From Oscillospiraceae bacterium (GTDB taxonomy: Bacteria; Bacillota; Clostridia; Oscillospirales; Ruminococcaceae), in the NCBI GenBank assembly GCA_040766825.1, contig JAXGPS010000001.1, positions 13,411 to 77,410 on the forward strand: a stretch of DNA of 64,000 nt. The letters are read 5' to 3'. Made by a program: the position numbers and the translations under genes. Under the pieces are notes generated by a model. The model searched no databases and had not been told where the DNA came from. It was given only the letters and a program-made list of their open reading frames with translations. How positions within the stretch are numbered: the stretch's first letter is position 1; each line of letters begins with the position of its first letter. Positions 1 through 64,000 of the stretch are shown here, in pieces.

Positions 1-240
1 GCACTCCTGTCAGAGCTGTCCGAGGTTATGCGTGAGATTGAAACGGCTTCAAGGCTTTCTCTTTTGGGTATAATAAACAACTCAAATCTTGGCGAAGAAA
101 CGAACTTAGACACTGTAAACAGCTCGCTTTCCTTTGCAAGAGAATTTCTGAGTTGAGTGGACTTCCTCTCGTTTCACGGCGTATTCCGAAGAAATATGCC
201 CTAAATCAGAAAATGCAATGCCAATTAAAATATACGTAAA
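1..240 (+). CDS. 3' end of an unidentified upstream gene (partial; frame change near 170)
   Basis: An open frame runs in from the window edge (…VMREIETASRLSLLGIINNSNLGEETNLDTVNSSLSFAREFLS). After one frame change it continues (…LSGLPLVSRRIPKKYALNQKMQCQLKYT*) and ends near 240. No family was recognised. Confidence 0.3.
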
Positions 241-294
241 ACAAATTTGGCAGGAATAAACCTGCTCACAATAAACAGAAAGGACTTAAATCTA

Positions 295-501
295 ATGGCT
301 AAAATAACTATCGCTTTTGAAAAATGTAAGGGCTGTGGTCTTTGTACAACCGTTTGCCCAAAAAACATTTGCTAATACGAGAAAAATTCCCGTAATTCTA
401 AAGGCTATTTCACCGCTGAATGTACCGATTTAGAAAAATGTATCGGTTGCGCAATGTGTGCTAAAATGTGTCGGAATTGCGTAATTACAGTTGAAAAATA
501 G
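295..501 (+). CDS. korD: 4Fe-4S ferredoxin-type delta subunit of 2-oxoacid:ferredoxin oxidoreductase (frameshifted)
   Basis: ATG at 295 gives MAKITIAFEKCKGCGLCTTVCPKNIC* (one CxxCxxCxxxCP cluster). A second cluster, EKCIGCAMCAKMCRNC…VEK*, is read in another frame and ends at 501. It lies directly upstream of korA. Confidence 0.6.
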
Positions 502-550
502 CCCTATTTCCAAGAGTAAAAAAACATATTTTATATAAGGAGTGAGTTTT

Positions 551-1606
551 TTGGAAAGAAACCTTATGAAAGGTAACGAAGCCCTCGCAGAAGCTGCAAT
601 ACGTGCAGGTTGCAAGTGCTTTTGGATACCTATTACCTCAGACAGAAATCTCTGCTTACATGGCGAAGAGAATGGCCGAAAGCTGGTGGCGTGTTCCTAC
701 AAACGGAATCGGAAATCGCTGCTATTAACATGGTTCTAGGCGCTGCATCTACCGGCGTTCGTGTTATGACGTCCTCTTCTTCACCTGGAATTAGCCTAAA
801 GGCTGAGGGTATCTCATATTGTGCTGCAAGCGATTTACCTTGCGTAATTATTAACGTACAACGTGGTGGGCCTGGTCTTGGTGGTATTCAGCCTTCTCAG
901 TCTGACTATTGGCGAATACAAGGGCGTTAGGACATGGGGATTTTCATGTTCTGGTATTCGCACCTTCCTCCGTGCAGGAGATGAAGGTCGACATGATCAC
1001 AAAGCTTTCGACCTCGCCGACAAGTACAGAATGCCTGCAGCCAAATTCTTGCTGACGGACTTCTCGGGCAGATGATGGAACCTGTAACATTCCCACAAGG
1101 ACTAGACTGAACTTCCAGAAAAGACTTGGGCTGCTAATGGACACGGTAAGAAAAGAAACCACAACATTATCAACAGCCTTATTCTAAAGCCAGAGGACCT
1201 TTACAGACTTAACGTTGAACGTTTTGAAAAGTACGCTGAAATCTGCAAGACGGAAACTATTGCTGAGAGCTATCTTTGCGATGATGCCGATATAGTAATT
1301 ACTGCATTCGGAGCTACTGCTAGAATTGCAAAATCTGCTGTAAATTCAGCTAGAGAACTTGGTATAAAGGCTGGTCTTTTCCGCCCTGTTACAGTTTGGC
1401 CATTCCCTGCTAATGAGCTTAATGAAGCAGTTAAGAATGCCAGCGAAATCCTTTGCGTTGAAATGAGCATGGGACAGATGATTGACGACGTTAAGCTTGC
1501 AATCAACTGCTCAAAGCCTGTGTCTTTCTTTGGAAGAACCGGCGGAGTTATACCAAAGCCATCTGAAATTCTTGAAGAAATCAAAAAGCTTGGAGGTGCA
1601 AAGTAA
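551..1606 (+). pseudogene. korA: 2-oxoglutarate/2-oxoacid:ferredoxin oxidoreductase alpha subunit KorA, at least 5 frame disruptions
   Basis: The N-terminus [16 protein letters not shown] is typical of KorA/PorA. Further KorA segments ([41 protein letters not shown]) are spread over frames 2, 1 and 2. Fragments between 1075 and 1606 are each shorter than 60 aa. The terminal …IKKLGGAK* overlaps the korB ATG at 1606. Confidence 0.8.
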
Positions 1607-2364
1607 TGGCTGTTGTATTTGAAAGACCTAAGTCACTTTGTGATGTTCCTATGCACTACTGCCCCGGCTGTACACACGGTATAATCCACCGTCTTATCTG
1701 CGAAGTTATGGACGAAATGGATATTGAGGGCGAAACAATCGGCGTTTGCCCTGTTGGTTGTTCGGTTATGGCTTATGACTATTTTGGCTGTGACATGATT
1801 GAGGCTCCTCACGGACGTGCACCGGCTGTTGCAACCGGCGTAAAGCGTGCAAATCCTGATAAATTCGTATTCTCATATCAAGGTGACGGCGACCTCGCTG
1901 CTATTGGTACTGCTGAAACAGTTCATAGCGCAACAAGAGGCGAAAACATCACTATAATATTTGTAAACAACGGTACATATGGTATGACTGGCGGTCAAAT
2001 GGCTCCAACTACTTTGCCTGGACAAGTTACTCAAACCACTCCTTTCGGACGTGATGTTACTGTTCAAGGCTACCCTGTAAGAGTTTGTGAAATGCTTTCT
2101 CAGCTTGACGGTGTTGCGCTTGCTCAAAGAACTTCCGTTGACAGCATTCCTCATATCAATGAAACTAAAAAGGCTATTAGAAAAGCTTTTGAAAATCAGC
2201 GTGATAAGAAAGGCTTCTCTATTGTGGAAGTGCTTTCAACTTGTCCTACAAACTGGGGACTTTCTCCTATCGAATCCCTTGAGAGAGTAAGAAACGAAGT
2301 AATTCCTTACTACCCTCTTGGCGTAATTAAGGACAAATATGCGGAGGTGAAGGAAAATGACTAA
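1606..2364 (+). CDS. korB: 2-oxoacid:ferredoxin oxidoreductase beta subunit (TPP-binding)
   Basis: An intact 252-aa ORF. It has the CPGCTHG motif, the TPP-binding GDGD region and the start MAVVFERPKSLCDVPMHYC. The ATG overlaps the korA stop. Confidence 0.9.
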   Translation: MAVVFERPKSLCDVPMHYCPGCTHGIIHRLICEVMDEMDIEGETIGVCPVGCSVMAYDYFGCDMIEAPHGRAPAVATGVKRANPDKFVFSYQGDGDLAAIGTAETVHSATRGENITIIFVNNGTYGMTGGQMAPTTLPGQVTQTTPFGRDVTVQGYPVRVCEMLSQLDGVALAQRTSVDSIPHINETKKAIRKAFENQRDKKGFSIVEVLSTCPTNWGLSPIESLERVRNEVIPYYPLGVIKDKYAEVKEND

Positions 2365-2887
2365 TGAAGTAATTTTCGCAGGATTTGGCGGTCAAGGTAT
2401 TCTTTTCTCCGGCAAGGTTTTGGCTTACACAGGCCTTATTGATGAGCGTGAGGTTTCATGGCTTCCGTCATATGGCCCTGAAATGCGTGGCGGAACTGCA
2501 AACTGTTCTGTCTGCCTTTCTGATAAGCCTATTGGCTCACCTTTGATACTTGAGCCATCAACCTTGGTTGTAATGAACGGCCCATCTTACGCTAAATTCA
2601 TCGACACTGTTCAGCCTAATGGTAAGGTTTTTATCGATTCTACGCTAATTTCTGATAAATGTGAGCGTTCGGATATTTCCTGCTACTACATTCCATGCAC
2701 CGAGCTTGCTCTTTCAAACGATATGAACGGAATGGCAAACATGATTATGCTAGGAAAACTCATTAAGGAAACTAATATGACAAGCCTTGAGTCTGTTAAA
2801 AAGGCTATGGAAAAATGTATTCCTCCTAAAAAAGCTCACCTTGTTGAGCTAAACATGAAAGCAATACAAATCGGATACGACTACTAA
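2357..2887 (+). CDS. korC: 2-oxoacid:ferredoxin oxidoreductase gamma subunit
   Basis: An intact 176-aa ORF starting MTNEVIFAGFGGQGILFSGKVLAYTG, the characteristic gamma-subunit start. It overlaps the korB stop. Confidence 0.85.
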   Translation: MTNEVIFAGFGGQGILFSGKVLAYTGLIDEREVSWLPSYGPEMRGGTANCSVCLSDKPIGSPLILEPSTLVVMNGPSYAKFIDTVQPNGKVFIDSTLISDKCERSDISCYYIPCTELALSNDMNGMANMIMLGKLIKETNMTSLESVKKAMEKCIPPKKAHLVELNMKAIQIGYDY

Positions 2888-3498: not shown

Positions 3499-4233
3499 AT
3501 GTCTAAAATTATTGCAGTTACGTCTGGTAAAGGCGGTACAGGTAAATCTTCGATATGTGCCGGTTTAGGATATGCACTTGCAAAGCAAGGCAACAGAACA
3601 CTTATTATCGAGCTCGACTTTGGACTTAGATGTATGGACATCATGCTCGGAGTTAGAGATGTTATCCAGCACGACTTGGGAAATGTACTTAACGGGGATT
3701 GTGACATTTACAAGGCTACTACACAAGTTAAAATGGCATCTAACCTCAGCATCGTTTGTGCTCCGAGGATCCATTTGCTCAACTTAACGCTACTCTCATT
3801 CACGAAATTTGTGAAGAAATGCGTAAATATTATGAATATATCATCATCGACACTTCCGCTGGTATTAACTCAGCGTATTTGACATCGTTGAACAGTCCGA
3901 CCTCATCTTAGTTGTTACAACTCCGGACGCTATCTGTGTTCGTGATGCAAGAACAATGTCCGATGAGTTCTATAAGAGAGGCAACAAGAAACAACGTCTC
4001 ATCATCAACAAAGTAAACCTTAAACTCCTCAGCTATGACCTAGTGGCTGACCTTGACCAGATCATTGACACGGTAGGAGTTCAGCTTATTGGCGTAATTC
4101 CTGAAGATATGGCAATTACTGTTGCTACTTCAAAGGTGAAGCTATTCCGTCATCATCTGCTGGATTTAAGGCTTTCGAAGCTATTTCCAAACGTGTTAAG
4201 GGCCAAGAGATGTGCCACTTACAATCAACCTAA
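3499..4233 (+). pseudogene. MinD/ParA-family P-loop ATPase (septum-site-determining-like), at least 2 frameshifts
   Basis: RBS GGAAGGAG then ATG. The deviant Walker A is MSKIIAVTSGKGGTGKSS, and the sequence runs on to …IIELDFGLRCMDIMLGV. The C-terminal MinD-like segments ([13 protein letters not shown]…, [23 protein letters not shown]…KRVKGQE) are in other frames. The stop is at 4231-4233. Confidence 0.7.
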
Positions 4234-4255
4234 AATAAGTATTGGGGGGTTAACC

Positions 4256-4660
4256 ATGAATATCGCACTTATAGCTCACGATTCCAAAAAAGAATTGATG
4301 GTTCAATTCTGCATAGCTTATTGTGGGATTTTGAGCAGACATAATCTTTGCGCAACAGGGACTACTGGAAAGCAAGTTGCAGAGTCAACCGGACTTAGAA
4401 TCCAGCGTTATCTTAGCGGTGTTCAAGGCGGGGATCAGCAGATCAGCGCTCGCATCTCATGCAATGAAATTGACTTGTTGCTATATTTCCGTGACCCAAT
4501 CACACCAAAGCCTCATGAACCTAATGAGCTGAATTTGCTTCGTCTTTGTGACGTTCATAATATACCTCTTGCAACAAACATTGCAACTGCTGAGGCTCTA
4601 ATTCATGCGCTTGAAAGAGGAGATCTTGATTGGCGTGAGATTATCAATCCACGTGACTAA
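4256..4660 (+). CDS. mgsA: methylglyoxal synthase
   Basis: [19 protein letters not shown]…ATGTTG…[11 protein letters not shown]…[15 protein letters not shown] is the canonical MgsA motif set. The ORF is intact at 134 aa. Confidence 0.9.
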
Positions 4661-4732: not shown

Positions 4733-4984
4733 ATATATTATCTGCTTTGAAAAGTAGAGTACCCTTTTTTTAATTCGCAAAGAGAATGACGGGTGTTTCA
4801 ACTGAAACTCTTCTGTGACCGTCACGGCTTATTATTGGTGAAGGACACCTTGGAGCTTTTGTACGATTAAGTACAAACGTTATTTCACGTTACGAAATTT
4901 AAGAGCAGTTATTTGCTGAATCAGGGTGGTACCACGGCTAATCTTGTCGTCCCTTACATTTTGTGTAAGAGGACGGCTTTTTAT
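4733..4984 (+). promoter_or_regulatory. T-box leader (tRNA-sensing riboswitch) controlling the methyltransferase-hisS-aspS unit
   Basis: The conserved T-box sequence AATCAGGGTGGTACCACGG is at 4919-4937 and carries the UGGU antiterminator bulge. The terminator hairpin cgtccctta…taagaggacg plus a T-run lies at 4946-4984. Upstream there is a GA-motif/AGTAGAG stem-I region. Confidence 0.65.
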
Positions 4985-5003: not shown

Positions 5004-5799
5004 ATGTCAAAAAATATAGATAATTCTACACGTTTCACTGGTTTTAGTGAACTTTATGACGGCTCACGTCCGACATTTGACGATTTCCCGATTGTTCTTC
5101 TTCAAAAGTATTTGAAAAGTGAAATCGACGTTATCGCCGATTTCGGCTGTGGGACAGGTCTTTCAACGGAAGTGCTGTCCAAACACTGCCGTTCTGTAAT
5201 CGGAGTTGAACCTAGTGAAGATATGCTTGAAATTGCCAAGTCTAAGGGGATTTCAAACGCTACTTTCTTGCATGAATATTCGCATTCTACAAGCATTCCT
5301 AGTGACTCTGTTGACTTGGTTATATGCTCTCAATCTTTTCACTGGATGGAGCCTAAGTCTACATTAGCGGAAGTGAACCGTATTCTCAAAAAGGGCGGAA
5401 TATTTGCCATTGACTATGACAGGACACCTTTGCTCGGAATTGAGTGAACTTAAGTATGCTAATTTATTCTCCCATTCGTTAAATGGTGCGAAGATAATCT
5501 TGCAAATTTAAAGGACACTTTCAGACGCTTCAGCAAAGATGAACACCTGAAAAACACATAACAGAGCGGGTATTTTGAAGTATTCTCGTGAAGTGGTTTT
5601 CCATAAGCAAACAGCTTTCAACGCTGAACAGCTCATCGGACTTGCAATTAGCAGTGGCGGTATTCAGAATATCCTTAAAAAACGCCCTGACCTCATTGAG
5701 CGCAGACTTAATGAGTTTGCCGATGCTGTCCATCATGACTTTGAGGATAAGGAAATCGACATTTATCTGTTTTATAGAATGAGATTTGGAATTAAGTAA
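5004..5799 (+). CDS. class I SAM-dependent methyltransferase (one frameshift between 5447 and 5575)
   Basis: Motif I is DFGCGTGLST and the protein starts MSKNID. The C-terminal part (…LIGLAISSGGIQNILKKRPDLIERRLNEFADAV…) is read in another frame and ends at 5799. Confidence 0.75.
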
Positions 5800-5818
5800 C
5801 TGAAAGGAATTCAAAAAT

Positions 5819-7127
5819 ATGGCACTTTTAACACAACGACCTAAGGGACTCAAGACGTAGTCCCTTCTGAAAGTTACAAGTGGCAAACTGTTGAAAAAGC
5901 TTGCTGCTGAAACTGCTGAAAAAATACGGATTTCGTGAAATACGCTTTCCGACTTTTGAACATACTGAACTTTTCACCCGCTCAGTTGGCGATACAACTG
6001 ACGTTGTTCAAAAAGAAATGTACACATTCACCGACAAGGGCGACCGTTCAATCACTCTAAGACCTGGGGACTGCCGGCACTGTTCGTGCCATGCTTGAAA
6101 ATGGGCTTCTTAATGAGCGTCTGCCACAAAAAGTGTTCTACTTCCCTTCCTGCTTTAGATATGAAAAGCCACAAGCCGGCAGACTTCGTGAGTTCCACCA
6201 GTTCGGCTGCGAAATGTTCGGCAGTGCTTCCCCTTGTGCAGATGCTGACGTTATCGCTCTTGCGAAAACTTTTATTGATAGAATTGGACTTAAGGACGTT
6301 AAGCTTTACATTAATTCTATCGGCTGTCCGACTTGCAGAAAGGAATATCACGACGCTCTCCGCAAATATTTTGAAGAACGTAAGGGCGAACTTTGCGAAA
6401 CCTGTCTTGGAAGATTAGGGAAAAATCCTATGCGCATTCTCGACTGTAAGAGCCCTGTTTGCTCTGAAATTGCGAAAGATGCGCCGATTATCCTTGATTA
6501 TCTTTGTGAGGAATGCGATCTGCATCACTTCCTGTACATAACCTCAATGCAATGAACATTGAGTTTGAAATTAACCCTAAAATCGTAAGGGGACTTGATT
6601 ACTACACAAAGACTGTTTTTGAGTTTATAACAACCTCCATTGGTGCGCAAGGCACTGTTTGTGGCGGTGGACGTTATGACGGACTTATCGAGCAACTCGG
6701 TGGTAAGCCACTCCCTGCTCTTGGTTTTGCGATGGGAATTGAAAGACTTATTCTTACTATGGAAAATCAGGGCTGCGATTTTATATACCTGCTAAGAAGT
6801 GCGACCTTTATATCGCATCTATGGGCGAGGCTGCTCTTTCTCGTGCAATTGTTCTTACAAAGGCTTTTGCGTGATGAGGGATTTTTGGGTGGAATACGAC
6901 GTTATGGGTAGAGGGCTTAAGCCTCAGATGAATATGCTGATAAGCTAAATTCTCAATTTGTACTTGTGCTTGGTGAGACTGAACTTGAAAGCGGCAACGC
7001 AAACCTCAAGAACATGACTACCGGTACTCAGACGCCTATCACTCTTGGAGATGGATTTGTAGAACAATTCTCTAATATTTCCGTTTCAAATATGTTCAGT
7101 GGCGTACTTGAGGATTTTAATATTTAA
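5819..7127 (+). pseudogene. hisS: histidine--tRNA ligase HisS, at least 4 frame disruptions
   Basis: MALLTQRPKG|[17 protein letters not shown]|…[47 protein letters not shown]…FPSCFRYEKPQAGRLREFHQFG…[12 protein letters not shown]…GGGRYDGL… are HisS segments spread over all three frames. The end, …SGVLEDFNI*, is at 7127. Confidence 0.85.
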
Positions 7128-7167
7128 TCTAAACTTGGAGGAAAAATAATGGCAATCAATCAAAGGA

Positions 7168-8930
7168 ATGAAACGCACCCATTACTGCGGCAAAGTCGAG
7201 GAATTGGCAATGTCGTAACAGTAGGTGGTTTTGTTCAGAAAATACGTGACCTTGGCAACCTTATATTTATAGACCTTCGTGACTCAACAGGAATTGTTCA
7301 GCTTGCTTTCAACGACACGACTTCTCGTGAAATCTTTGAAAAAGCTTCCTCTTGTCATAGCGAATACGTCCTTATGGCAACGGGTACAGTTTGCGCAAGA
7401 GAGAGCGTAAATGCTGAAATTTCCACCGGAAGTGTTGAAATCATGGTAACTGAGCTGCGCATTCTTGCAAAGGCTCAAACGCCTCCTTTTGAAATCACAA
7501 ATGAAACTAAGGTTAACGAAAATCTACGACTAAAGCACCGTTACCTTGACTTGCGCAGAGCGCCACTTCAGCAAAATATAATCAAGCGCCATCATATTGC
7601 AAGAGTAACTCGTGAATATTTCTATGAAAACGGCTTTATCGAAATCGAAACACCTATGCTGATTAAATCAACTCCTGAGGGCGCTCGTGACTATCTTGTG
7701 CCATCAAGAGTTCATAAGGGCAACTTCTACGCTCTCCACAATCACCTCAAATTTACAAGCAACTTCTCAGTGGTTTCTGGCTATGACAGATATATTCAGC
7801 TTGCAGATGTTTCCGTGATGAGGACTTACGTGCTGACAGACAGCCCGAATTTACTCAAATCGACTTAGAGATGGCTTTTTGTTGACATTGATGATGTTCT
7901 TGAAATGATTGAGGGCTATATTCACCGTCTTTTCAAAGATGTAATGAATATTGAACTTGCGCAAAAGCTTCCAAGACTTACATTTACTGACGCAATGAAC
8001 CGCTATGGCTCGGACAAGCCTGACACTCGTTTTGAAATGGAAATTCAAGATATTTCCTCTCTTGTTAAGGACTGTGGATTTGGAGTTTTCACCTCTGCAA
8101 TTGAGGCTGGAGGTAGTGTTCGCTGTATCGTTGCTAAAAACGCTGCTGCTACTCTCACTCGTAAGGAAATCGACAAGCTAACTGAAATGGTCCGTGGAAT
8201 TGGCGCTAAAGGACTTGCTTACGTTAGATGGGTGGACGATGCACCTAGCTGTTCTTTTGGCAAGTTCATGGGCGAGGGCGAACTTGATGCTATCCTTAAT
8301 GCTACTAACTGCGAAAAGGGTGACGTTATGCTTATCGTTGCCGATAAAAACAGCGTTACATTGCCTGTTCTTGGTGCTTTGCGTCTTAAAGTTGCAAAAC
8401 AGCTTGACATTATTCCTGAGGGTTGGAACTTCCTCTGGATTACAGAAATGCCATTCTTTGAATGGGACGAAGATAATCAAAAGTGGCTTGCTATGCACCA
8501 CCCGTTCACAATGCCTATGGAAGAATGTCTTGAATATTTGGATACTGAACCGGGTAAGGTTCGTGCTAAGGCTTATGACCTTGTTCTTAACGGTATTGAG
8601 CTTTCAAGTGGCTCAATCCGTATTACAGACTACGAACTTCAGCAGAAAATGTTTGAGGCACTCGGTCTTGAGGCTGAAGAAATTGAGGCTAAATTCGGTT
8701 TCTTAGTTGATGCTTATAAGTACGGCGCTCCTCCTCATGGTGGTGCTGGAATTGGTCTTGACCGTCTTGCGATGTTGCTATGCGGTGAGGAAAGTTTACG
8801 TGATGTTACTGCATTCCCTAAAATGCAGAACGCTTCAGAACTTATGTCCTCCTGCCCTGCTACTGTGGACGATGAAAGCCTTGAAGTTCTAGGAATAAGC
8901 ATCGTTCCTGAAGAAAAAACCGAAGACTAA
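7168..8930 (+). pseudogene. aspS: aspartate--tRNA ligase AspS, about 3 frameshifts
   Basis: The true start, MKRTHYCGKVEELAMS, is in a different frame from the track ORF. It continues …LIFIDLRDSTGIVQ…FYALHNHLKF…RYIQLA|[25 protein letters not shown]|…GAPPHGGAGIGLDRLAMLL…. Confidence 0.85.
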
Positions 8931-8956
8931 ATTTCTAAGCTTGTTACGGAGGCCTT

Positions 8957-9760
8957 ATGTACATAGATTTTCACACGCATGGTTTTGCTGATAAAATCGC
9001 TGAAAAAGCCATTGCCGCTCTTGAGGCTAACAGCGGTTTTCCTGCACTTACGGACGGAACTATTTCTGATTTAAAAAGGATACTTCTGTGAGGACGGAGT
9101 TGACAAGGGCGTTTTACTGCCGATTGCGACAAAACCAACTCAACAAACAATAATTAACAACCTCTCAGCAGAACAAAACCCGATGAACTCATATGTTTTG
9201 GCAGCGTTCACCCCGATGCTGAGGACGCTTTAGATGAGCTTAACAGAATAAAATCTCTCGGTCTGAAGGGTGTGAAATTCCATCCGGATTATCAGGAATT
9301 CTTCATCAATGATGAGAAAATGCACCCTATATATGAGCGTTGTCAAGAACTAGGATTAATCGTAGTTTTTCATGCGGGGTATGATCCTCTTCACCAGACT
9401 TAATCCACGCACAGCCTCCCGAATCGGAAAAGGTCGCAAGGAAGTTCCCTAACTTAAAAATCGTTCTTGCCCATCTCGGCGGAATGATGCAGTTCGATTT
9501 AGTGGAAAAGCACCTTGTCGGACTTAGGAATGTGTGGCTTGATACTGGATTTCTTGCCCCTCAACACGAGGACGCTCGAGCATATTGAGCAGTCTCAGCT
9601 TGAACGCATTATCAAAAATCACGGCGCTGACTGTGTTATGTTTGGTAGCGACTTGCCGTGGCAGAGGCCTATTCACGGTATCCAGCAAATCCACAACCTA
9701 AATTAAGCGATAACGAAAAAGAGCAGATTTTCCACAAGACAGCAGAAGATCTACTTGAAT
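8957..9760 (+). pseudogene. amidohydrolase-family (TIM-barrel metal-dependent hydrolase) protein, multiple frameshifts
   Basis: It starts MYIDFHTHGF. Segments …GLKGVKFHPDYQEF…, …KIVLAHLGGMMQF… and …VMFGSDLPWQ… lie in three frames. The C-terminal segment LSDNEKEQIFHKTAEDLLEF runs into the terminator hairpin. Confidence 0.6.
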
Positions 9761-10694: not shown

Positions 10695-10897
10695 TCTCTT
10701 TGCCTCTTTCTTGTTCTTTTTCTCTATATATAACCTTATTCGTCTATAAAATCAGCCGCAAACTGATTTTATGAACAATTCCGTTGAAAACGGAATTGTT
10801 CACTACGCATTAATTAAGAATATACCTTACTTTTTAACAAATGTCAACATTACACATGGTTTTATGTTGCCTCGACTTGTAAATAAAAAATGCGTCC

Positions 10898-23250: not shown

Positions 23251-23266
23251 ATTACTAAATATTTAA

Positions 23267-36045: not shown

Positions 36046-37313
<1,268 letters not shown>

Positions 37314-43347: not shown

Positions 43348-43350
43348 TCG

Positions 43351-43662: not shown

Positions 43663-43885
43663 AATGAAAACTCCTTTCATAGAGTGCATTTTTGCACGCT
43701 TATATTATAACACTACACTTGCCAATTTGTCAAGTGTAGTTGCCAAAAAGACCAAACAGCCCGTTTTCCTCTGTTTGGTCTTTTTTATAATTAATAATAC
43801 CACTACCCAAAATGTTTCGAAAATTGTATAAATGATGAGTTTTCACTTGTTGTACTTAGTTTATCACAAAGAGGTGTGGTTTTGT

Positions 43886-49924: not shown

Positions 49925-50058
49925 AATTTGCCCCTTATATCAATTTTGCTATACAGATCTAAATTGATATATTACATTACATTCCCCCTTAAGGCAATAC
50001 TTCACAACGCACGCTTGATGGTTCTGTGCGGTATTGCCTTTCCCTTATCAAGGTTTAT

Positions 50059-50166: not shown

Positions 50167-51201
<1,035 letters not shown>

Positions 51202-51761: not shown

Positions 51762-51774
51762 AATTTTCCCCTCC

Positions 51775-53385: not shown

Positions 53386-53445
53386 TCCATCACTTCTTTC
53401 AAAATAAATTAGCGGTTTTGGCAATAATGCAAAACACTATTTTAA

Positions 53446-53674: not shown

Positions 53675-53729
53675 AATAATGTGTATGAATATCAGCGATA
53701 CCAAAGTCGCTGCTTGAAAGGACTTATAA

Positions 53730-54680: not shown

Positions 54681-54688
54681 AAAAAGTA

Positions 54689-54722
54689 AGCGTTCAAGAT
54701 TTTAAGTCTTGAACGCTTTTTT
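54689..54722. terminator. bidirectional intrinsic terminator
   Basis: agcgttcaaga…tcttgaacgct flanked by an A5 run and a T6 run. Confidence 0.6.
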
Positions 54723-54778
54723 GTCGAGATTATTCTGTATATGCTATGCCGAGAATTTGAAACTCACAATCAACAGAG

Positions 54779-55972
54779 TCATCGTCCATTTTTATGCCAA
54801 CTTCCTTGTCTTAGCAACAGCATTGCTGAAACTAGCCTTTGCTGTGGGTTGTTCCAGCCATCTGGGCTGTTTGATGCTATTTTCACGTAAGGCTCTCCAT
54901 CTGATAGAATTTGTGCAGTCCCCATTTTAGCGGAGTTTGCCTCCTTGTAAATCACGAAAACATTCTTCGCTGTAATGTCAAACGTAAGCGGCTCGTTGCC
55001 CGTTCCTGCTTGATAGGTAAAACCGTTAGGGAACGGCTTAATGTTCCTCCTGCTGTAAATGAGCCTAGCGACTTAATTTGCAGGCTGTCTGAATCAAGCA
55101 AAATTGCATTTTTCGTAATCATTGCCTACAATCGGTTCGGACGGCATAGTGTAGGAAGTTTGCTGACTTGAGTAGAATTCCTCCATCTCGAAGTAATTCT
55201 CTATAAGTCCCGATACGAATTCATGCCCCTCTTTATGTGGGTGTGAACCATCATCGGAATAATCGTCCCATGTCATTTTCCCCGCCTCAAATGCCGGAGT
55301 AAGAGCATCGCCGACCGAAATCATCGGCAATTCATAATAGCTGCCCAACGTTTCCATCCAAGGTTGGCAAGTATGTCCGTTCTCAAGGATAGTGAAAAGC
55401 AGAATAACTGCCGGCTCATTCGGCTGATTGAGAATTGTTCTGATTAGACTTTCATATGACTTTTGATAGATAGCCTCGCCACCGTCATTTACTGCAAATT
55501 CGAGAAAAACAATGTCTGCATTATGCTCCAAAACATCACGCTGAACACGGAGATTTCCAAGAATAGACGGAGTTCCGCTCATTCCTGCGTTTACGTACTT
55601 TACATTTCCACCTGTTCCGTACTTTTGAGCAATCCAATTATACGAGCGTTCAGCATAACAATTCTCGCCCTTAGCGTTAAGCCCCTCTGTAATTGAGCCG
55701 CCAAGGTATGCAATAGTTACCTCCTCGCCGCTTGTCATAGCAGACAGTTTATTCATAAGACGGTATGTGTTGCCACGGCTGGTGTAGGAAAGCTGTTTCA
55801 TCGCCTCCGTCAACTCATCACCCTCAAGCGCCGATAGATTGATGTTTTCTTCTGTTTCCATCGTTACCTCTGTCGTTTCGGTCGTGGTTTCGTTTTGTGC
55901 ATCATTTGAATTGCAAGCGACTAATGAAAACACCATCGCCGCCACTGTAAGTATTGATATTATCCTTTTCAT
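54779..55972 (-). CDS. SGNH/GDSL-family hydrolase lipoprotein with C-terminal beta-sandwich extension (two closely spaced frame changes near 55070-55095)
   Basis: The lipobox is MKRIISILTVAAMVFSLVAC. The SGNH blocks are …AYLGGSITEG…, …GMSGT… and …DDGSHP…. After …CNFA* the same frame continues 6 codons later with …KPFPNGFTYQAGTGNEPLTFDI…DGWNNPQQ…. The intervening 20 nt are open in a third frame. Confidence 0.6.
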
Positions 55973-56001
55973 AGAAAATCCCTTCTATTAATTGAAAAAA
56001 A

Positions 56002-56035
56002 CAGGGGTGCAAAATGCACCCCTGTAATTTTTATT
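56002..56035. terminator. bidirectional intrinsic terminator
   Basis: caggggtgc aaaat gcacccctg flanked by an A-run and a T-run. Confidence 0.65.
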
Positions 56036-56041
56036 AGACAA

Positions 56042-57184
56042 TTAGTTGATAAGTGTCTTTTCTGTTTCCTTGTCGAAGATGTGAATCTTGTTAGGATCGA
56101 TAGCAACCTTGATTTCATCCTGTGGTCTAGCAGTAGAACGAGGTGAAACTCTAGCTGTAAGTGGGAAACCTTCACATGTGATGTAAAGATATGTTTCAGC
56201 ACCCATCATTTCTGTGATTTCAACAGAAGCATCAATGATACCTGTCTTAGCAGCAGAAAGGAACATTTCTTCGTCATGAATGTTTTCAGGACGAATACCA
56301 AGAACGATGTCCTTGTCGATATAGTCAGCAAGTACTGCTTCGTCAACCTTAGCTTCAGGAATTTCAACGTAGTACTTAACGCCTCTTGTTGTCTTAGTAT
56401 CTTCAGAGCCGAACTCAACAGTATACTTGCCGTCAACCTTGATAAGCTTAGATTCGATGAAGTTCATTTGTGGTGAACCCATAAATCCAGCTACGAACTG
56501 GTTTACTGGGGACTCGTATAGGTTCTGTGGAGAGTCAACCTGCTGAATGTAACCGTCCTTCATAACAACGATTCTATCACCCATTGTCATAGCTTCTGTC
56601 TGGTCGTGAGTTACATAGATAAATGTAGTTCCAAGTTTCTTATGGAGCTTAGAAATCTCTGTTCTCATCTGAGCACGGAGCTTAGCGTCAAGGTTTGAAA
56701 GAGGTTCGTCAAGAAGGAATACTTGTGGCTCACGTACGATAGCACGACCAAGCGCTACACGCTGTCTTTGACCGCCAGAGAGAGCCTTTGGCTTTCTGTC
56801 GAGAAGGTGAGAAATGTCAAGAATTCTTGCAGCTTCTTCAACCTTACGAGCGATTTCATCCTTTGGAGTCTTACGGAGCTTAAGTCCGAAAGCCATGTTT
56901 TCAAAAACTGTCATGTGTGGATAGAGAGCGTAGTTCTGGAAAACCATCGCAATATCTCTGTCCTTAGGCGCAACGTCATTAACGAGTCTATCGCCAATGT
57001 AAAGTTCGCCTTCTGAAATTTCTTCAAGTCCAGCGATCATACGAAGAGTTGTAGACTTACCACAACCAGATGGACCTACTAGAATGATGAATTCCTTGTC
57101 CTTGATTTCAAGATTAAAATCTGATACAGCAACAACGCCGCCTGGATATTTCTTATAAATTGAACGTAATGATAAACTTGCCAT
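56042..57184 (-). CDS. sugar ABC transporter ATP-binding protein (MsmK/MalK/UgpC type)
   Basis: An intact 380-aa ORF. It has Walker [10 protein letters not shown], signature [15 protein letters not shown], Walker [11 protein letters not shown] and a C-terminal TOBE domain. Confidence 0.9.
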
Positions 57185-57310
57185 TATGGACCTCCCAATT
57201 AAATTTATTGTGCCAATACGATTTTACATTTGGCCTCTGCTAATATAATACCAAATAACTAACCTAAATTTCAATTCACTAATTACATAAACTTCTAAAA
57301 ACTTGTTTAT

Positions 57311-58078
57311 TTATTTTGACGAAAACTTAACCAAGCTTGAAAAGCAATTATCCAAAAAGTCATTAAAAGTCCAAATTTTCAAGGTTTCTTTGTGCAGAAT
57401 TTCTCTACACTCCCCCATTGCTAAATTTTGGTCTAAAATCAATCCCCCGATTTGCAAACGCTTTAAATACACAACTTCGTTTCCGAGAGCTTTGAACATT
57501 CTTTTGACTTGATGATACATTCCTTCGTGCAGAACAACAAAAACTGCATTGTCCTTCTGCTTGTGAAAGTATATTTCTGCCGGCAAACAAACATCTCCCC
57601 CGTCAATTTCCATCCCCGACCTAAACGCTTCCTCATAGCTTTGCTCGTAATCTTTTAAAAGCTCTGCGTAATAAACTTTCGGCACATGGGATTTTGGAGA
57701 GAGCATCTTGTGAGCAAATTCCCCGTCATCTGTAATGAGCACAAAGCCCTCCGTATCCTTGTCAAGCCTCCCTGCCGGAAAAAGACCGTCCCTTTTAAAT
57801 TCATCCGGAACAAGAGATAGCACACTGTTGGCAGAACGTTCGTCTTTTGTAGAACAAACAACCCCTTTCGGCTTGTTAAGCATAAGATAGATATTCTTTT
57901 TATAATTTATCTTAACTCCTTTTACAAGAACAGTATCTCCATTTATATCTATTTTTATGTCTGAAGTTTTAGGAATTTTTCCATTAACAGTGATTTCGCC
58001 TTTTTTAACTAAGATTTTCACTTGACTTCGGGAATACTCCGTTTGTGATGAAACGAATTTATCCAGTCTTTCCTGCAT
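57311..58078 (-). CDS. rsuA: rRNA pseudouridine synthase (RsuA/RluB family)
   Basis: The S4 domain is MQERLDKFVS…SRSQVKILVKKGEITVNGK. The catalytic motif is …PAGRLDKDTEGFVLITDDGEF…. Confidence 0.8.
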   Translation of the reverse strand: MQERLDKFVSSQTEYSRSQVKILVKKGEITVNGKIPKTSDIKIDINGDTVLVKGVKINYKKNIYLMLNKPKGVVCSTKDERSANSVLSLVPDEFKRDGLFPAGRLDKDTEGFVLITDDGEFAHKMLSPKSHVPKVYYAELLKDYEQSYEEAFRSGMEIDGGDVCLPAEIYFHKQKDNAVFVVLHEGMYHQVKRMFKALGNEVVYLKRLQIGGLILDQNLAMGECREILHKETLKIWTFNDFLDNCFSSLVKFSSK

Positions 58079-58108
58079 GGGCAGCCCTTCCTTCTTGCAA
58101 AATTTTAG

Positions 58109-58690
58109 TTATTTTCGCTTTTTAACAGCAAATCCAAAGTCGCCGATTTTCCTGCCTAATTTAAAGTACTCACCATGTGCGTATGCCGAAAGTCCGCATT
58201 GCTGCAAGTTTAGTTTGCCTTTTGAGTCAATGTATCTTGCTTCAACATCGACTGCGACAATTTCAGCTAAAAACATATCGTGACTGCCAAGCGGAATTAT
58301 TTGTTTTACTTTGCATTCCATAGCGATTGGGCATTCTTCAATAATCGGTGCCGAGATTTTCGAGGCTGAAACGGCGTGAAGTCCAGTTGCTTTGAACTTG
58401 TCGATTTTTGCACCCGTTCTTGCTCCGCAAAAATCTGCTGAGGCTGTAAGGGCAGATGTCGTGAGGTTTATAGCAAACTCCCCCGACTCCTTTATAATAT
58501 CGTATGAATATCTTGACGGACGGACGGAAATATAAGTCATAGGCGGATGCGTGCAAGTTATTCCTGTCCATGCGATTGTTATTATGTTCGGATTTTCAAG
58601 AGTTCCACACGTCACCATTGCCGGTGGGCAAGGCGCTAAAAGCACCGAAGGTTTCCATTCTATTTTTTTGCTTTCTACCTGTTTTTCCAT
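58109..58690 (-). CDS. flavin reductase-like (FMN-binding split-barrel) protein
   Basis: …APCPPAMVTCGT…NIITIAWTG…. The likely start is MEKQVESKK. Confidence 0.7.
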   Translation of the reverse strand: MEKQVESKKIEWKPSVLLAPCPPAMVTCGTLENPNIITIAWTGITCTHPPMTYISVRPSRYSYDIIKESGEFAINLTTSALTASADFCGARTGAKIDKFKATGLHAVSASKISAPIIEECPIAMECKVKQIIPLGSHDMFLAEIVAVDVEARYIDSKGKLNLQQCGLSAYAHGEYFKLGRKIGDFGFAVKKRK

Positions 58691-58930
58691 GTTTAACTCC
58701 TTTTTTATACCTATATGTTTATAGTGTACCATAAAAATATTTTTTTTACAAATATAATCCTATATAAGTATAAATCAAAAAATACCGACTAAAATAAGTG
58801 CGATTATTGTTTCAAAAGAAGTATGCAAACTTTTTTTGTAAATATAAACCTGCGCTAAGTATAATTCCAAAAATATAGCCTAAAATAAGTTTACTAGCAA
58901 AGCATTATTCTATTTGAAAGGAAAATTATT

Positions 58931-59641
58931 ATGAAGGATAAGAATTCAGCATTCGGAAAAATTTGGAGTGGAAAAGGTTTTATTCTTACAGTGTGCATCT
59001 GTGCAGCTGTTGTCGGAATTGTAGGCTACGTTGCCTATTCTGCAACTGCGAACAGACTTAATAACCAACTTGAAGCTCTCAGCGAGTCAACCACGGCAAG
59101 CCAGTGGGGATATGAGGACGTTGGAATTAATCAAACTGATGTACCATTAGTAGAAGTAACCACCGCTGCCCAGACCGAAGTAACCACTGAGGCTACCTCT
59201 GCTGACAAGCCTGTCGCCGTAGCCGTTCAGCCATTTATTCGCCCTCTTGTAGGAGATATTATCAATGAGTTCAGCAACGGGGAGCTTGTTAAGTCAAAGA
59301 CTCTCAATGTTTGGCAAACTCATGATGGCGTTGATATTGCCGGGGCAAACGGCGACAAGGTTAAGTCTATGACATCTGGCACAGTTACTAAGATTTATGA
59401 AGATCCTCTATGGGGCGTTTGCGTTATTATCGACCACGGCAACGGCTACGAGGGGCATTACAGAAATCTTGGCAAGGTTGTAGTTGTGAAGCTAGACGAG
59501 CAAGTGAGTGCCGGCACTGTAATCGGAACTATCGGCGACACTGCCGAATGTGAGTTGGGAGAGGTTTCTCACCTGCACTTCGGCGTTAAGCAAAACGATC
59601 AGTGGGTAAATCCGTTAACCGTAATCACTCCTGCCGAATAA
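58931..59641 (+). CDS. M23-family metallopeptidase with N-terminal membrane anchor
   Basis: A TM segment (FILTVCICAAVVGIVGYVAY) is followed by the LytM domain motifs HDGVDIAG and HLHFGV. Confidence 0.8.
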   Translation: MKDKNSAFGKIWSGKGFILTVCICAAVVGIVGYVAYSATANRLNNQLEALSESTTASQWGYEDVGINQTDVPLVEVTTAAQTEVTTEATSADKPVAVAVQPFIRPLVGDIINEFSNGELVKSKTLNVWQTHDGVDIAGANGDKVKSMTSGTVTKIYEDPLWGVCVIIDHGNGYEGHYRNLGKVVVVKLDEQVSAGTVIGTIGDTAECELGEVSHLHFGVKQNDQWVNPLTVITPAE

Positions 59642-59653
59642 TTAAAAAGAACG

Positions 59654-59697
59654 ACAACTGACCTCCAGCCGTTTCAGGTTGGAGGTCAGTTGTTTTA
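59654..59697. terminator. bidirectional intrinsic terminator
   Basis: A 13-bp stem acaactgacctcc…ggaggtcagttgt followed by a T-run. Confidence 0.7.
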
Positions 59698-59703
59698 AAA
59701 ATG

Positions 59704-60879
59704 TTATTTATTTAAGTAAGCTAGATTTTTTCGTATCAAGTCACACCTCTGCTGTACGCAGTCAACACTCCTTAGTGCGTCATATGGGGTGTTAAAGGTA
59801 TAGTCAATAAGTTTTTCAATAGTAGTTGTCGCTACATGAACTCGTGTATCAGATGATGCGTAGTAGATGTAAACATCGCCGTTTTCTCTTGCAATTGCGC
59901 CGTTTGTGAACACCACGTTTGAAACATCTCCGACTCTTTCTTCGCCGTGTGGGGCAATGAAAACGCCCGATGGGCTTGCAATAAGCTTTGATGGATCGTT
60001 TAGGTCTGTTGCAAAGACATATATAACGTATCTTAGTCCTGCTGCTGTATTTCTCACTCCATGTGCAATATGAATCCAGCCCTTTTCAGTCTTTATCGGA
60101 ACAGCGCCTGCTCCGTTCTTTGCCTCTGTAATGGTGTGGTAAAGTCTTGGACTTACAACCACTTCCTGCTCGGTAATTACCGGATTTGTTATATCCTCGC
60201 ACTTTCCGTAGCATACCCCTCCACCGGAGCCTGTTTGAATAAAGTCGTCTTGAGGTCTTGTGTAGAAAGCATACTTCCCGTCCACAAATTCAGGGTGAAG
60301 AACTACGTTTCTTTGTTGTGGGGAGTTTGTTTTTAGGTTAGGCAACCTCTCCCATGTTTTCAAGTCGTGCGTACGCACAATGCCTGCCGCAGCCGTTGCA
60401 GCAGATAAATCCGAGGTCGAAGTGTCTTTGCTTTCCGAACAGAAAACTCCGTAAATCCAACCGTCTTGATGCTTTGTAAGACGCATATCGTATACGTTTG
60501 TTTCTTCCCTTTCAGTATCAGGAAGCTCCACCGGGAAGTCCCAAAATCTAAACCCATCAACGCCGTTGTCACTTTCAGCAACTGCAAAGAATGACTTTCT
60601 GTCGTTACCCTCAACCCTAGCTACAAGATAGAACTTGCCATCAAGCTCTATTGCCCCGGAATTAAGGACAGCATTAATCCCAAGCCTCTCCATAAAATGA
60701 GGGTTTGTTTCGGGGTTGAAGTCATATTTCCAGATGAGAGGTGCGTGGGCAGCAGTGAGAACAGGGTTTTCCCACTTTTCATATATTCCGTTGTAGAAAT
60801 CGGTTTTTGTATTCTTCTTTGAGATTAGTTCTTCGTATTTTGAAGTTTGTTCGTTATATTTTTTTATGAATTCGGACAT
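59704..60879 (-). CDS. glycoside hydrolase family 130 (beta-mannoside phosphorylase-type)
   Basis: It starts [11 protein letters not shown]…. GH130 five-bladed propeller motifs are …[33 protein letters not shown]… and …[17 protein letters not shown]…. Confidence 0.8.
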
Positions 60880-61018
60880 TTTAAATCCCTCCGTAGTTTG
60901 ATTTATATAAGTATAACATATTCTCACTTTAATTTGCAAATATATTGACGATTTATCTGCATTGTGATAAACTAAGTCTGTTCGTTTTAAAAAGCATTCT
61001 AAAAAAGGAAACTAAAAA

Positions 61019-61999
61019 ATGATTTATTTCTTATACCTTATTATAGCTGCGGTTGTTGTGGTTTTTTCTATTAAAGTCGCCGGCTACGTTGACCTTATTG
61101 AAAAAAAGTCCACCCTTTCAGGGGCATTCATCGGCGGTGTAATACTCGCTGCTGTAACAAGCTTGCCTGAATTAATAACCAGCATTTCCTCCGTTATGAT
61201 CTTGAAAACCCCTCAGCCGGGGCTTGTTCTTGGGAATATACTCGGAAGTAATGTGTTCAATCTGTTCACCTTTGGTGTTATCGGCATGATTTTCTCCAAA
61301 AAATTAGCTGGTTCTGCCATATCAAAGAGCCATAACGCTTCCGTAATAACAAGTCTTTTCGCATATTGCGCTTGCGTATTGACTATTTTCGCTGGACTAG
61401 AGTATGTTATTCCGGTGATTAATATGAGCACTCTTTCCATCGTGCTATTTATACTATATATTATTGCAATCGTTTCAATGAAAGGCGATACCGATGATGA
61501 AGAAAAAGAGGATACAAGCCCTCTTTCACTAAAACAGGTCGTTTTCAGATTTGTTCTTTGCGCTATCGGTCTTGTTGCATCAAGTATTGCAATCACTTAT
61601 GTTACAGATATTATTGCTGTAAGGCTTGATCTCGGAACTACATTTGCAGGGGCGCTATTCCTTGGTATTGCAACGTCTTTGCCGGAACTCAGCTCGTCTA
61701 TTGCGCTTGCGAAAATGGGCAATTTCAACGCTCTTACGGGCAACATCGTTGGAAGCAACATCTTCAATTTCGCAATCCTCACCTTTACAGACCTTATCTA
61801 TCGCACCGGCGGAATTTACGGGAAAAATGATCAAGCAAAGCCGCTTATCTTCTTCGGAGTTGTCGCAAGCATTGCAATGATGCTCTTTATTGCGCTTAAA
61901 AGCGGCAAGAAAAAGATTACGGCAAGAGCGCCTTTCTTCCTTTTATCGCTAATCATTTCGGGAAGTTATATTGCGTATTTGGTTTTTAGTGTAATGTAG
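61019..61999 (+). CDS. CaCA-family sodium/calcium exchanger-type membrane protein (YrbG-like)
   Basis: Two alpha-repeat regions: …GGVILAAVTSLPELITSI… and …GALFLGIATSLPELSSSIALAKMGN…. Confidence 0.85.
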   Translation: MIYFLYLIIAAVVVVFSIKVAGYVDLIEKKSTLSGAFIGGVILAAVTSLPELITSISSVMILKTPQPGLVLGNILGSNVFNLFTFGVIGMIFSKKLAGSAISKSHNASVITSLFAYCACVLTIFAGLEYVIPVINMSTLSIVLFILYIIAIVSMKGDTDDEEKEDTSPLSLKQVVFRFVLCAIGLVASSIAITYVTDIIAVRLDLGTTFAGALFLGIATSLPELSSSIALAKMGNFNALTGNIVGSNIFNFAILTFTDLIYRTGGIYGKNDQAKPLIFFGVVASIAMMLFIALKSGKKKITARAPFFLLSLIISGSYIAYLVFSVM

Positions 62000-62272
62000 T
62001 TTTGGATTATAACAGTATTTTAACATTTTTAAAATCGACTAGCGAAAAATAAACTTTTCTCAAAAATTGTTTATTTTTCGCTATTTTGCTTTTAATCTGA
62101 TGTAATCGTATTTTTGAAACGTTTAACTATCTATTTTCACTATATTAGCTATATTAAATATAGCAGATTGTTTTATTGACACAGCGATTTATTTGATATT
62201 ATTAACAACGGGATACATCTGTTTATATACAATATGAGGAGAATATTGTAATTTTTAATTTAGGAGGAAACA

Positions 62273-63679
62273 ATGAAAAACAATATTAAAAGAATTATTG
62301 CTGCTTCTCTAGCGGCAACAACAGTTTTCAGTCTTGCTGCTTGTACTGGCGGCGAAGCTGCTGAAACAACTCCGGCAACAACTATCGACAATCCTTTGGA
62401 CGAAGAGGACAAAGCTGCTCTTGAAGAAGTTGGTGTTGACCTTCTCACAGGAGAACTTGAAAACAAAACTATTAAGTGGCTTTCTAACTGGGACATCAAC
62501 CCTGACTCATCAGGTAAGAAAACTCCAGTAGAACTTGAGCTTTTCCAGACAAAGTTCGGAGGTATCGTTGAATACTATGCTTCTGACTGGGGTACTCGTT
62601 ACACAGACCTTTCAACTCACGTTCTTGGCGACACTGGTATCGATTTCTTCCCTGCCGGCGACCTTGACGGTTTCCCTATGGGTGCTATTAGCGGTATGTT
62701 CCAAGGATTTGATGATTATGTTGATTGGGACTCACAGCTTTGGAGTGAAGTTAAGCCTATCGCTGATATGTTCATGTGGGGCGATGATCACTACATAATC
62801 GCTACCGCTACTACTGACGGACCTGTTGTTATCTTCAATCAGCAAACTTTTGAAGAATACGGTCTTGATAACCCTGTTGAACTTTTCGAAAATGGTGACT
62901 GGACTTGGGACACATTTAAGCAGCTGCTTATGGATTACTGCGATCCTGACAACGGTCTTAACGGTATTGACGGTTGGTACACAGAAGCTGCTCTTATGAA
63001 GACAACTGGTGTTCCTGTTGTTGACATCAAGGACGGCAGACTTATTTCTAACATCGGCAACTCTGACGTTGAAAGAGTTATGAACTTCATGGCTGACCTT
63101 TACAACAACAACCTTGTAATTGACAAGTCACAATACGACTGGGCTGAACAGCCTCAGTTCATCGGCGAAGGTAAGGATCTATTCTATCCATGTGGTCTAT
63201 GGGCTCTTTACGGCGCTCCTGATACATGGCAGGTTAAATTCGGCGACGATGTTATGTTCGTTCCAATGCCTAGGGACCCTGAAGCTGACGCTTACTACCT
63301 ACCTGCTGGCGTTGACGGCTACTTCCTATGTAAGGGCGCTCAAAACCCAGAAGGCGTTATTAAGTTCGCTGAATGTAAAATGGTTGCTAACAAGGATGAA
63401 ACAGCTATCGCTATTGGTGAAGCTGAACTAAAATCAACATACGGCTGGACAGACGAAATGGTAGAAATGAAGCAGACTGTTCTTGATATGACTCTTGAAA
63501 ATCCTGTATTCGACTTCTACAACGGCACAAATGCTGACATCACATCTATTCTTGACAGTGGTGAAACAGGTATCCGTGCTTCCCTTCAGTCTGGTAAGTC
63601 TTGGGCTACTACAAGAGAGGAAATCGGTTCTGCTATTGCAGAATGGCTAGAGGACATCAACGTAGCTGCTGGCGTTTAA
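62273..63679 (+). CDS. extracellular solute-binding lipoprotein (family 1 sugar ABC substrate-binding protein)
   Basis: The lipobox is MKNNIKRIIAASLAATTVFSLAAC. The ORF is intact at 468 aa. RBS GGAGGA. Confidence 0.85.
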   Translation: MKNNIKRIIAASLAATTVFSLAACTGGEAAETTPATTIDNPLDEEDKAALEEVGVDLLTGELENKTIKWLSNWDINPDSSGKKTPVELELFQTKFGGIVEYYASDWGTRYTDLSTHVLGDTGIDFFPAGDLDGFPMGAISGMFQGFDDYVDWDSQLWSEVKPIADMFMWGDDHYIIATATTDGPVVIFNQQTFEEYGLDNPVELFENGDWTWDTFKQLLMDYCDPDNGLNGIDGWYTEAALMKTTGVPVVDIKDGRLISNIGNSDVERVMNFMADLYNNNLVIDKSQYDWAEQPQFIGEGKDLFYPCGLWALYGAPDTWQVKFGDDVMFVPMPRDPEADAYYLPAGVDGYFLCKGAQNPEGVIKFAECKMVANKDETAIAIGEAELKSTYGWTDEMVEMKQTVLDMTLENPVFDFYNGTNADITSILDSGETGIRASLQSGKSWATTREEIGSAIAEWLEDINVAAGV

Positions 63680-63699
63680 TTTCTATTAAAGTGTGGGCG

Positions 63700-63830
63700 A
63701 ATTCAGCGGGGGATTTAACCCCCACTGAATGAAGACCGCCTTTAATGAGGCGGGCGTTTTAACGCTCGCCCGTCGCCATCGGCGACGAGCGTTTGCTGCG
63801 GCTTTGCCGTAGCAAACAAGATTTAAGATA
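63700..63830 (+). other. GC-rich cluster of four consecutive stem-loops (multi-hairpin terminator or structured RNA)
   Basis: Four hairpins in sequence: ttcagcggggg…cccccactgaa, accgcct…aggcggg+TTTT, aacgctcgcccgtcgcc atc ggcgacgagcgtt, and tttgctgcgg…ccgtagcaaa. Local GC is about 60% against about 38% background. Confidence 0.4.
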
Positions 63831-63877
63831 AAAGGTTTTCACTTTTGAATCTATTTTAAGTAAAGGAGATTATATCA

Positions 63878-64000
63878 TGGAAAATGAATTCAACAACTTC
63901 ACTAATCCAGAAAATGACAACAACTTTGAGAGCAACATTAACACTCAGGAGAATTTCACTCCCCCGCCTATTAATGCTGTAAATAATGATAATTTAGAGT
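63878..64000 (+). CDS. 5' end of a gene encoding an Asn-rich protein (partial)
   Basis: RBS AAAGGAGA, then ATG MENEFNNFTNPENDNNFESNINTQENFTPPPINAVNNDNLE…. It runs off the window edge. Confidence 0.35.

Follow-up and report, generated by a model that had tools for sequence, protein, structure and literature searches.

Genuine gene decay mixes nonsense substitutions, insertions and deletions (indels) of varied size, large deletions and raised substitution rates, and it spares the aminoacyl-tRNA synthetases. The recoding and editing systems of Euplotes, Physarum and the kinetoplastids work in one direction or with one nucleotide, at sites with a recognisable context and across the complete gene set. 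Gene-fragmenting indels are documented in long-read assemblies (PMC12007338), and the reported hot spots of nanopore consensus error are methylation motifs and base runs (PMC6591954). The present analysis concerns the frame disruptions in a stretch of 64,000 nucleotides (nt), here called the window, from an Oscillospiraceae bacterium of the gut Clostridia (GenBank assembly GCA_040766825.1, contig JAXGPS010000001.1, positions 13,411 to 77,410 of the forward strand). A previous sequence-only reading of this window had reported about 27 disrupted genes, essential ones included, and the 25 to 28 disrupted genes counted here agree with that figure. The disruptions are very probably errors in the deposited consensus, a technical artefact of long-read-type data, and not features of the organism. 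This reading is favoured because the spectrum consists of indels only, the repaired proteins are normal and carry no substitution load, the edges of the damaged patches ignore genes, and the targets include essential genes with a single copy in the window.

Detection and placement of frame disruptions

The map of open reading frames (ORFs) shows long stretches of short ORFs in alternating frames beside stretches with normal long ORFs, and adjacent profile fragments in different frames cover successive parts of one family. Events were placed by frameshift-aware protein-to-DNA alignment using our own code, with orthologues from 160 related loci and the results of protein searches as references. 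The ORF map, fragments of NCBIfam and Pfam profiles, tblastn and three-frame reading were the other bases of detection. A codon-usage Viterbi scan for frame switches, also our own code, was used only as a lower-bound guide; it reports too many shifts where one gene truly ends and the next begins, and compensated pairs escape it. For genes that lack good references, too, the counts are minimum values. A chimeric bait query made of fragments of seven genes was dominated by long unrelated kor fusions, and the usable references it gave were for korA only, plus one weak reference for a C39 peptidase. Altogether at least 48 one-base indels were found in 13 genes, with 43.6 kilobases (kb) of coding sequence covered by a reference or profile check, and in roughly twelve other genes a profile is cut short or the frame switches, at positions known only roughly. 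The genes on which the argument turns, with the clean controls, are as follows.

295-501, plus strand: korD-like 4Fe-4S ferredoxin subunit; Pfam Fer4 families match frame 1 of 1-560; three-frame view.
551-1605, plus strand: korA (VorB-like alpha subunit); six one-base indels, namely insertions 620, 674 and 1103 and deletions 917, about 1000 and about 1044, all within 620-1110 with the remainder clean; alignment to eight homologues, NCBIfam and Pfam fragments.
1606-2887, plus strand: korB and korC, clean control, no indel; NCBIfam, and fused homologues cross korB without a shift.
3499-4250, plus strand: minD; one-base deletions 3765, 3872 and 4132; frameshift-aware alignment with eight references, and tblastn gives four pieces in three frames.
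4256-4660, plus strand: mgsA, clean control, 89% identical to relatives.
5004-5800, plus strand: BioC-like methyltransferase; the NCBIfam profile stops at 131 of 244 positions; ORF map. A shift would lie near 5447, as judged from the profile break and not from a reference placement.
5819-7130, plus strand: hisS; nine one-base indels, namely deletions 5848, 6536, about 6780 and 6932 and insertions about 5902, 5924, 6069, 6869 and 6891; alignment in which five references agree, and NCBIfam fragments in different frames (profile positions 89-231 and 239-317).
7120-8930, plus strand: aspS; five one-base indels, all in 7197-7880, namely deletions 7197, 7736 and 7805 and insertions 7770 and 7876-7880 (a T5 run), with the C-terminal 60% (7881-8930) clean; frameshift-aware alignment.
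8957-9759, plus strand: Amidohydro_2 family gene; five indels, namely insertions about 9087 and about 9570 and deletions about 9180, 9391 and 9702; Pfam fragments in three frames (positions 81-146, 153-221 and 222-262) and alignment to ten homologues.
9974-10700, minus strand: Peptidase_C39_2-like lipoprotein; about 3 to 6 indels (approximate); Pfam, one weak reference (P0025) and Viterbi scan.
12909-13340, minus strand: rnhA; single deletion 13296, turning GGG into GG in the GPGGWG motif.
17098-18178, minus strand: serC; one-base deletions 17773 and 17928.
36049-37325, minus strand: purA; 10 to 11 one-base indels, about seven deletions and three to four insertions; NCBIfam fragments (positions 102-165, 256-382 and 380-421) and frameshift-aware alignment.
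51778-53440, minus strand: ilvB; one-base deletions 52555, 52707 and 53276.
55094-63679: clean control of GDSL lipase, ugpC, rsuA and others, all full-length with no indel detected.

The sequence-only reading had assigned three to six or more shifts to each of korA, hisS, aspS, serC, purA and ilvB; this stands for all of them except serC, which has only two. The three shifts in minD and the five in the amidohydrolase gene are additions that it had left unnamed. Because of compensating indel pairs, 7736/7770 at about 35 nt apart among them, aspS still gives the appearance of a pair of long ORFs sharing a frame. The N-terminal 90 nt of purA probably hold further indels. In korD the TAA at 373-375 is bracketed by an A6 and an A5 run, with the alternative frame reading through between the runs, and it is probably a compensated pair of homopolymer indels.

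Clustering and patch edges

The events are very unevenly distributed. Of the 48, 44 fall in nine genes totalling 9.1 kb, or 4.8 per kb, as against 4 in the other 34.5 kb, or 0.12 per kb, a 40-fold contrast. The heterogeneity statistic G reached 137 when the maximum in 200,000 multinomial simulations was 88.5 (G-test p < 5e-6), and 28 of the 41 checked segments were free of events, 14.2 being expected. The clustering reported earlier is thus confirmed, but the four clusters proposed for it (0.3-10.7, 17.1-18.2, 33.8-40.2 and 51.8-55.1 kb) do not take in the single shifts, which fall outside them. Neither is 0.3-10.7 kb one cluster: it resolves into four dirty patches parted by the clean intervals 1110-2887, 4256-4660 and 7881-9080.

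Two of the edges lie inside genes, so that the distribution ignores gene boundaries. The six korA events fall in 620-1103 and are followed by clean sequence from 1110 to 2887, across both korB and korC (P = 5e-9 given the local korA rate), and the five aspS events all precede 7881, with zero in the following 1 kb (P = 0.001 at the N-terminal rate). Patches are 0.2 to 4 kb long, with densities of about 10, 6 and 2 per kb. Outside them the density is 0.1 to 0.25 per kb, for example in 10.9-33.6 kb, and it is zero in 55-64 kb. GH95 (the gene for a family 95 glycoside hydrolase), feoB, nifS and serA, which had been described as intact, are indeed full-length, and so are many other genes.

Lesion spectrum and repaired frames

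All 48 placed events add or remove a single base; the alignments showed no larger deletion and needed no stop codon. Deletions outnumber insertions by 32 to 15 (p = 0.019). Undoing the indels alone gives single, open, stop-free frames of 437 codons for HisRS, 593 for AspRS, 429 for PurA and 554 for IlvB, and the repaired KorA (355 codons), SerC (377) and MinD (about 250) are likewise open and stop-free. The repaired HisRS keeps recognisable motifs of class II synthetases.

Divergence was compared for the repaired HisRS, the AspRS N-terminus and MinD against 32 related loci, with the prediction taken from the clean AspRS C-terminus and from reference pairs. The residuals were +0.014 for HisRS, -0.013 for the AspRS N-terminus and +0.069 for MinD, the standard deviation of reference pairs being 0.04 to 0.12. 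The residuals are within the scatter of the reference pairs, and the patches therefore hold indels without extra substitutions. In neutral decay, base substitutions usually exceed indels several-fold, as seen in bacterial mutation-accumulation studies, and for 44 indels decay would be expected to bring between 5 and 17 nonsense codons and to raise amino-acid divergence by a further 5 to 15%. Alongside the 44 indels of the dense genes there are no nonsense codons, with a probability of at most 0.005 if the substitution-to-indel ratio is at least 3. Second copies of hisS, aspS, purA and serC were not found within the window.

Sequence context of the indels

A few events lie in base runs, these being the T5 at 7876-7880 in aspS, the GGG of rnhA and an A6 run in purA. 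An enrichment in homopolymers was hinted at by the rough positions and was lost after fine placement. Five events, all of them deletions, lie within 8 nt of a GATC when 1.1 would be expected, which puts GATC first among the 256 four-base words (p = 0.0055, uncorrected). The deletion excess and this uncorrected GATC association fit the consensus errors reported for nanopore data and are a weak hint in that direction (PMC6591954). A non-standard genetic code, as a possible account of the in-frame stops, was ruled out, as the disruptions are changes of frame and not reassignable stop codons.

Short palindromic words are very rare in the window relative to the expectation from trinucleotide counts (CGCG 3 versus 87, GGCC 22 versus 117, GATC 72 versus 163). 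Their avoidance suggests pressure from restriction-modification.

Further disrupted genes and neighbouring features

The remaining disrupted genes were placed mostly from profiles and scans.

19194-20802, plus strand: ABC exporter permease; single shift near 20379, position from the Viterbi scan; Pfam ABC_export split into positions 1-395 and 396-528 in two overlapping ORFs.
21438-23255, plus strand: pckG; single deletion near 23131, the last approximately 40 residues being in another frame; NCBIfam covers 17-571 of 612; Viterbi scan and three-frame view.
26026-27506, plus strand: histidine kinase; single deletion near 26855 inside HisKA, which is split into positions 2-27 and 43-66 in two ORFs; Viterbi scan and three-frame view.
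31452-32875, minus strand: floT; single shift near 32628; NCBIfam FloT profile split into positions 6-81 and 112-280 in two ORFs; Viterbi scan.
33821-34830, plus strand: helix-turn-helix (HTH) regulator (from 33821) and low-molecular-weight protein tyrosine phosphatase (34370-34830); sequence reading.
34886-36000, minus strand: ORF fragments with weak coding signal and at least three frame switches.
37400-38322, minus strand: NTP-transferase-like gene; at least three frame switches (approximate).
39427-40160, plus strand: DUF4956 gene and the start of a Cthe_2159-domain gene; at least two to four frame switches (approximate); Pfam matches only 4-91 of 169 in the DUF4956 gene; Viterbi scan.
42751-43350, minus strand: DUF4417 gene; split near 43100, with profile positions 90-113 and 112-179 in two frames.
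47635-48856, plus strand: spoIVB; probable shift near 47675; the NCBIfam SpoIVB match starts at profile position 29 and the start codon is out of frame with its ORF.
49152-49925, plus strand: spo0A; in-frame TAA at 49278-49280.
53729-55090, plus strand: Peripla_BP_2 lipoprotein gene; shift near 53889, then about 0.6 kb of fragmented ORFs.

The single shifts that had been read in rnhA, pckG, the histidine kinase, floT and the exporter permease were each located by alignment, profile or scan; the one in spoIVB is probable. The split of the DUF4417 gene near 43.1 kb is new to the account. In the gene spo0A the lesion is an in-frame stop and not a shift. No lesion of the window is more clearly of the nonsense type than this TAA, the only other unexplained in-frame stop being that of korD, and Spo0A receiver domains carry an ordinary residue at this site. 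Its possible origins are an erroneous substitution, a paired deletion and insertion beside a T run, and a genuine null allele of spo0A.

The HTH regulator and the phosphatase lie in a dense patch with several shifts and in-frame stops each. For the phosphatase, Pfam LMWPc matches only 1-60 of 144, and a PDB alignment passes through the in-frame stops. The region 33.6-36.05 kb was also considered as minus-strand Pfam genes; the minus-strand scans were empty, and part of the region holds these two plus-strand genes. For the minus-strand ORF fragments in 34886-36000, including the fragment 34886-35188, no homologues were detected, and scans for Rfam families and tRNAs likewise revealed no RNA gene to account for the low-coding stretch. 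A repeated peptide, DTDTYTV[ST]QRS[AE]EDDIS, occurs there in two frames. An inverted repeat of 16 nt without mismatch (34843-34880) resembles a terminator placed between two convergent genes.

At 4738-4957 on the plus strand, upstream of hisS-aspS, there is a T-box leader (Rfam RF00230), whose 94.1 bits only just pass the gathering score. The ORF of the BioC-like methyltransferase stands between this leader and hisS, and in some relatives the gap from mgsA to hisS is only about 330 nt. The cluster at 38502-42099 (plus strand) encodes a VTC-domain protein, a DUF4956 membrane protein and a 675-residue protein with the Cthe_2159 carbohydrate-binding domain. An HTH_3 (Xre-type) regulator adjoins the split DUF4417 gene (42751-43704, minus strand), whose N-terminal part is outside the profile, and the pair may be what is left of a mobile element, or a module resembling a toxin-antitoxin system. 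Beside ilvB, the genes ilvN (51264-51797) and ilvC (50167-51189) are intact.

Window content and relatives

The G+C content is about 40% across the window. Its genes include korDABC (2-oxoacid:ferredoxin oxidoreductase), minD, mgsA, hisS-aspS, nifU/nifS, GH95 and serA/serC, and further pckG, pfk, feoB, floT, purA, spoIVB-spo0A and ilvCNB. The closest genomes are metagenome-assembled genomes of Oscillospiraceae/Ruminococcaceae, the nearest AspRS being 81% identical and the nearest PurA 79%. A second assembly of the same species was not found in the genome, metagenome and protein collections searched, where relatives were at most 81% identical, and there seems to be only one sample of the species. 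The comparison with orthologues that had been proposed for placing the indels was run at the protein level against these relatives, and it did place one-base events. The only exact match was a truncated AspRS fragment of 341 residues (P0218; window 7905-8930, plus strand), which comes from the same record, with NCBI as the source and a contig of 134,692 bp. It is kept as a stand-alone predicted protein in a collection of 15 billion proteins, where it forms a cluster of one.

Origin of the disruptions

The contig would be a consensus of error-prone long-read-type data in which nearly all residual error is single-base indels. Where depth or polishing was locally poor, 5 to 10 errors per kb would be left, and elsewhere 0.1 per kb or so, or none at all. 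To gene-calling software hisS, aspS, purA, serC, ilvB and korA would then appear as chains of short ORFs that alternate in frame. We infer both the technical origin and the role of depth or polishing in the patchiness, and a nanopore-like platform is weakly suggested. A long-read backbone throughout, and not short-read contigs with gaps filled by long reads, is favoured by the isolated single events within blocks that are otherwise clean. Local indel error from low-coverage or long-read-only assembly was also what the sequence-only reading had put first, and the one-base lesions, the normal repaired frames and the lack of a substitution excess speak for it.

Several points weigh against a technical origin. 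The argument is made from the deposited bases, and the indels were placed at the protein level, against relatives at most 81% identical. Most of the finely placed events are in runs of 1 to 3 bases, outside long homopolymers, which is atypical for a well-covered nanopore, 454 or Ion Torrent consensus, and the GATC association is lost on correction for 256 words. An in-frame stop instead of a shift is found in spo0A, and perhaps in korD too. Compensated indel pairs could also sit unseen in seemingly clean genes that have no reference.

Among the alternatives, deliberate or synthetic corruption, in which random one-base indels would have been put into chosen coordinate ranges of a correct sequence, is very improbable. 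It would explain the indel-only lesions, mostly outside homopolymers and without a substitution load, as well as the roughly exponential spacing within patches and the sharp, gene-blind edges. It had been named as an option before, but it is disfavoured by the 2:1 deletion bias and the weak GATC association, neither of which is expected from random editing. The several levels of density and the scattered singles in clean blocks resemble variation in depth and not a switch. The exact truncated AspRS is, moreover, already public as an NCBI-derived protein, which puts the damage in the public deposit and not in something added to the window.

Genuine pseudogenisation, by reductive decay or in a mutator, with the lost functions supplied by paralogues elsewhere or by a host or partner, had earlier been left open. 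Sequence by itself cannot prove that a base is wrong, the lineage is uncultured-like and sampled once, and spo0A carries a true nonsense-type codon. The indel-only signature nevertheless makes decay very unlikely even before reads are consulted: nonsense codons are missing from the dense genes, the placed indels are all exactly one base with no larger deletions, and no excess divergence is left after repair. Decay that had produced compensating pairs and as many as about 8 indels per kb would have to be old, yet full constraint still seems to act on the repaired proteins. The damage strikes HisRS, AspRS, PurA and SerC beside perfect neighbours, and the patch edges cut genes.

It is extremely unlikely that the indels are real in another way, namely that essential genes in an uncultured lineage of Oscillospiraceae have undergone hypermutation by indels only, in patches of kilobase size, and that the lineage survives by some correction step at the transcript or ribosome, or because the indel mutagenesis is very recent and localised and has paralogous back-up. 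The chance that programmed frameshifting or insertional RNA editing corrects the shifts, so that the genes are functional as encoded, is close to nil: perfectly conserved repaired frames would also be expected from a recoding system, but the shifts go in both directions with up to 10 per gene and compensating pairs only 35 nt apart, no common slippery or editing motif surrounds the sites, the orthologues in the 160 related loci are unshifted, and half of the contig's genes have no shifts.

With an origin in the consensus, pseudogene counts, completeness estimates, metabolic reconstruction or a claimed loss of HisRS, AspRS, PurA and SerC based on this assembly would be wrong. The artefact would already have spread to protein databases, where the 341-residue AspRS is stored as a protein. 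The biological interest of the disruptions is low, and their value is as a flag of data quality. The window also offers a test set by which an artefact may be told from a real pseudogene on sequence features, these being one-base-only lesions, an open repaired frame, no substitution excess and no nonsense codons.

Comparison with known systems

Frames that need many single-base corrections are also found with the +1 frameshifting of Euplotes and the mitochondrial RNA editing of Physarum and kinetoplastids. Unlike in those systems, the changes here run in both directions, share no motif and are confined to patches. Mycobacterium leprae, Sodalis and recent obligate symbionts likewise have many frameshifted genes with several lesions per gene. 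The window differs from decay of the Mycobacterium leprae or Sodalis type in having one-base indels only, no substitution excess and hits in essential genes.

The disruptions also resemble those of long-read assemblies from nanopore or PacBio continuous long reads, in which one-base indels falsely pseudogenise genes that are normal when corrected (PMC12007338), deletions dominate, and some errors are at methylation motifs or short base runs (PMC6591954). In contrast to the usual long-read errors, those of the window are extremely patchy, 40-fold over blocks of kilobases, and mostly outside homopolymers of 3 bases or more. This patchiness and the scarcity of homopolymers point to stretches of very low depth, or ones left unpolished or gap-filled, rather than to systematic error under good coverage.

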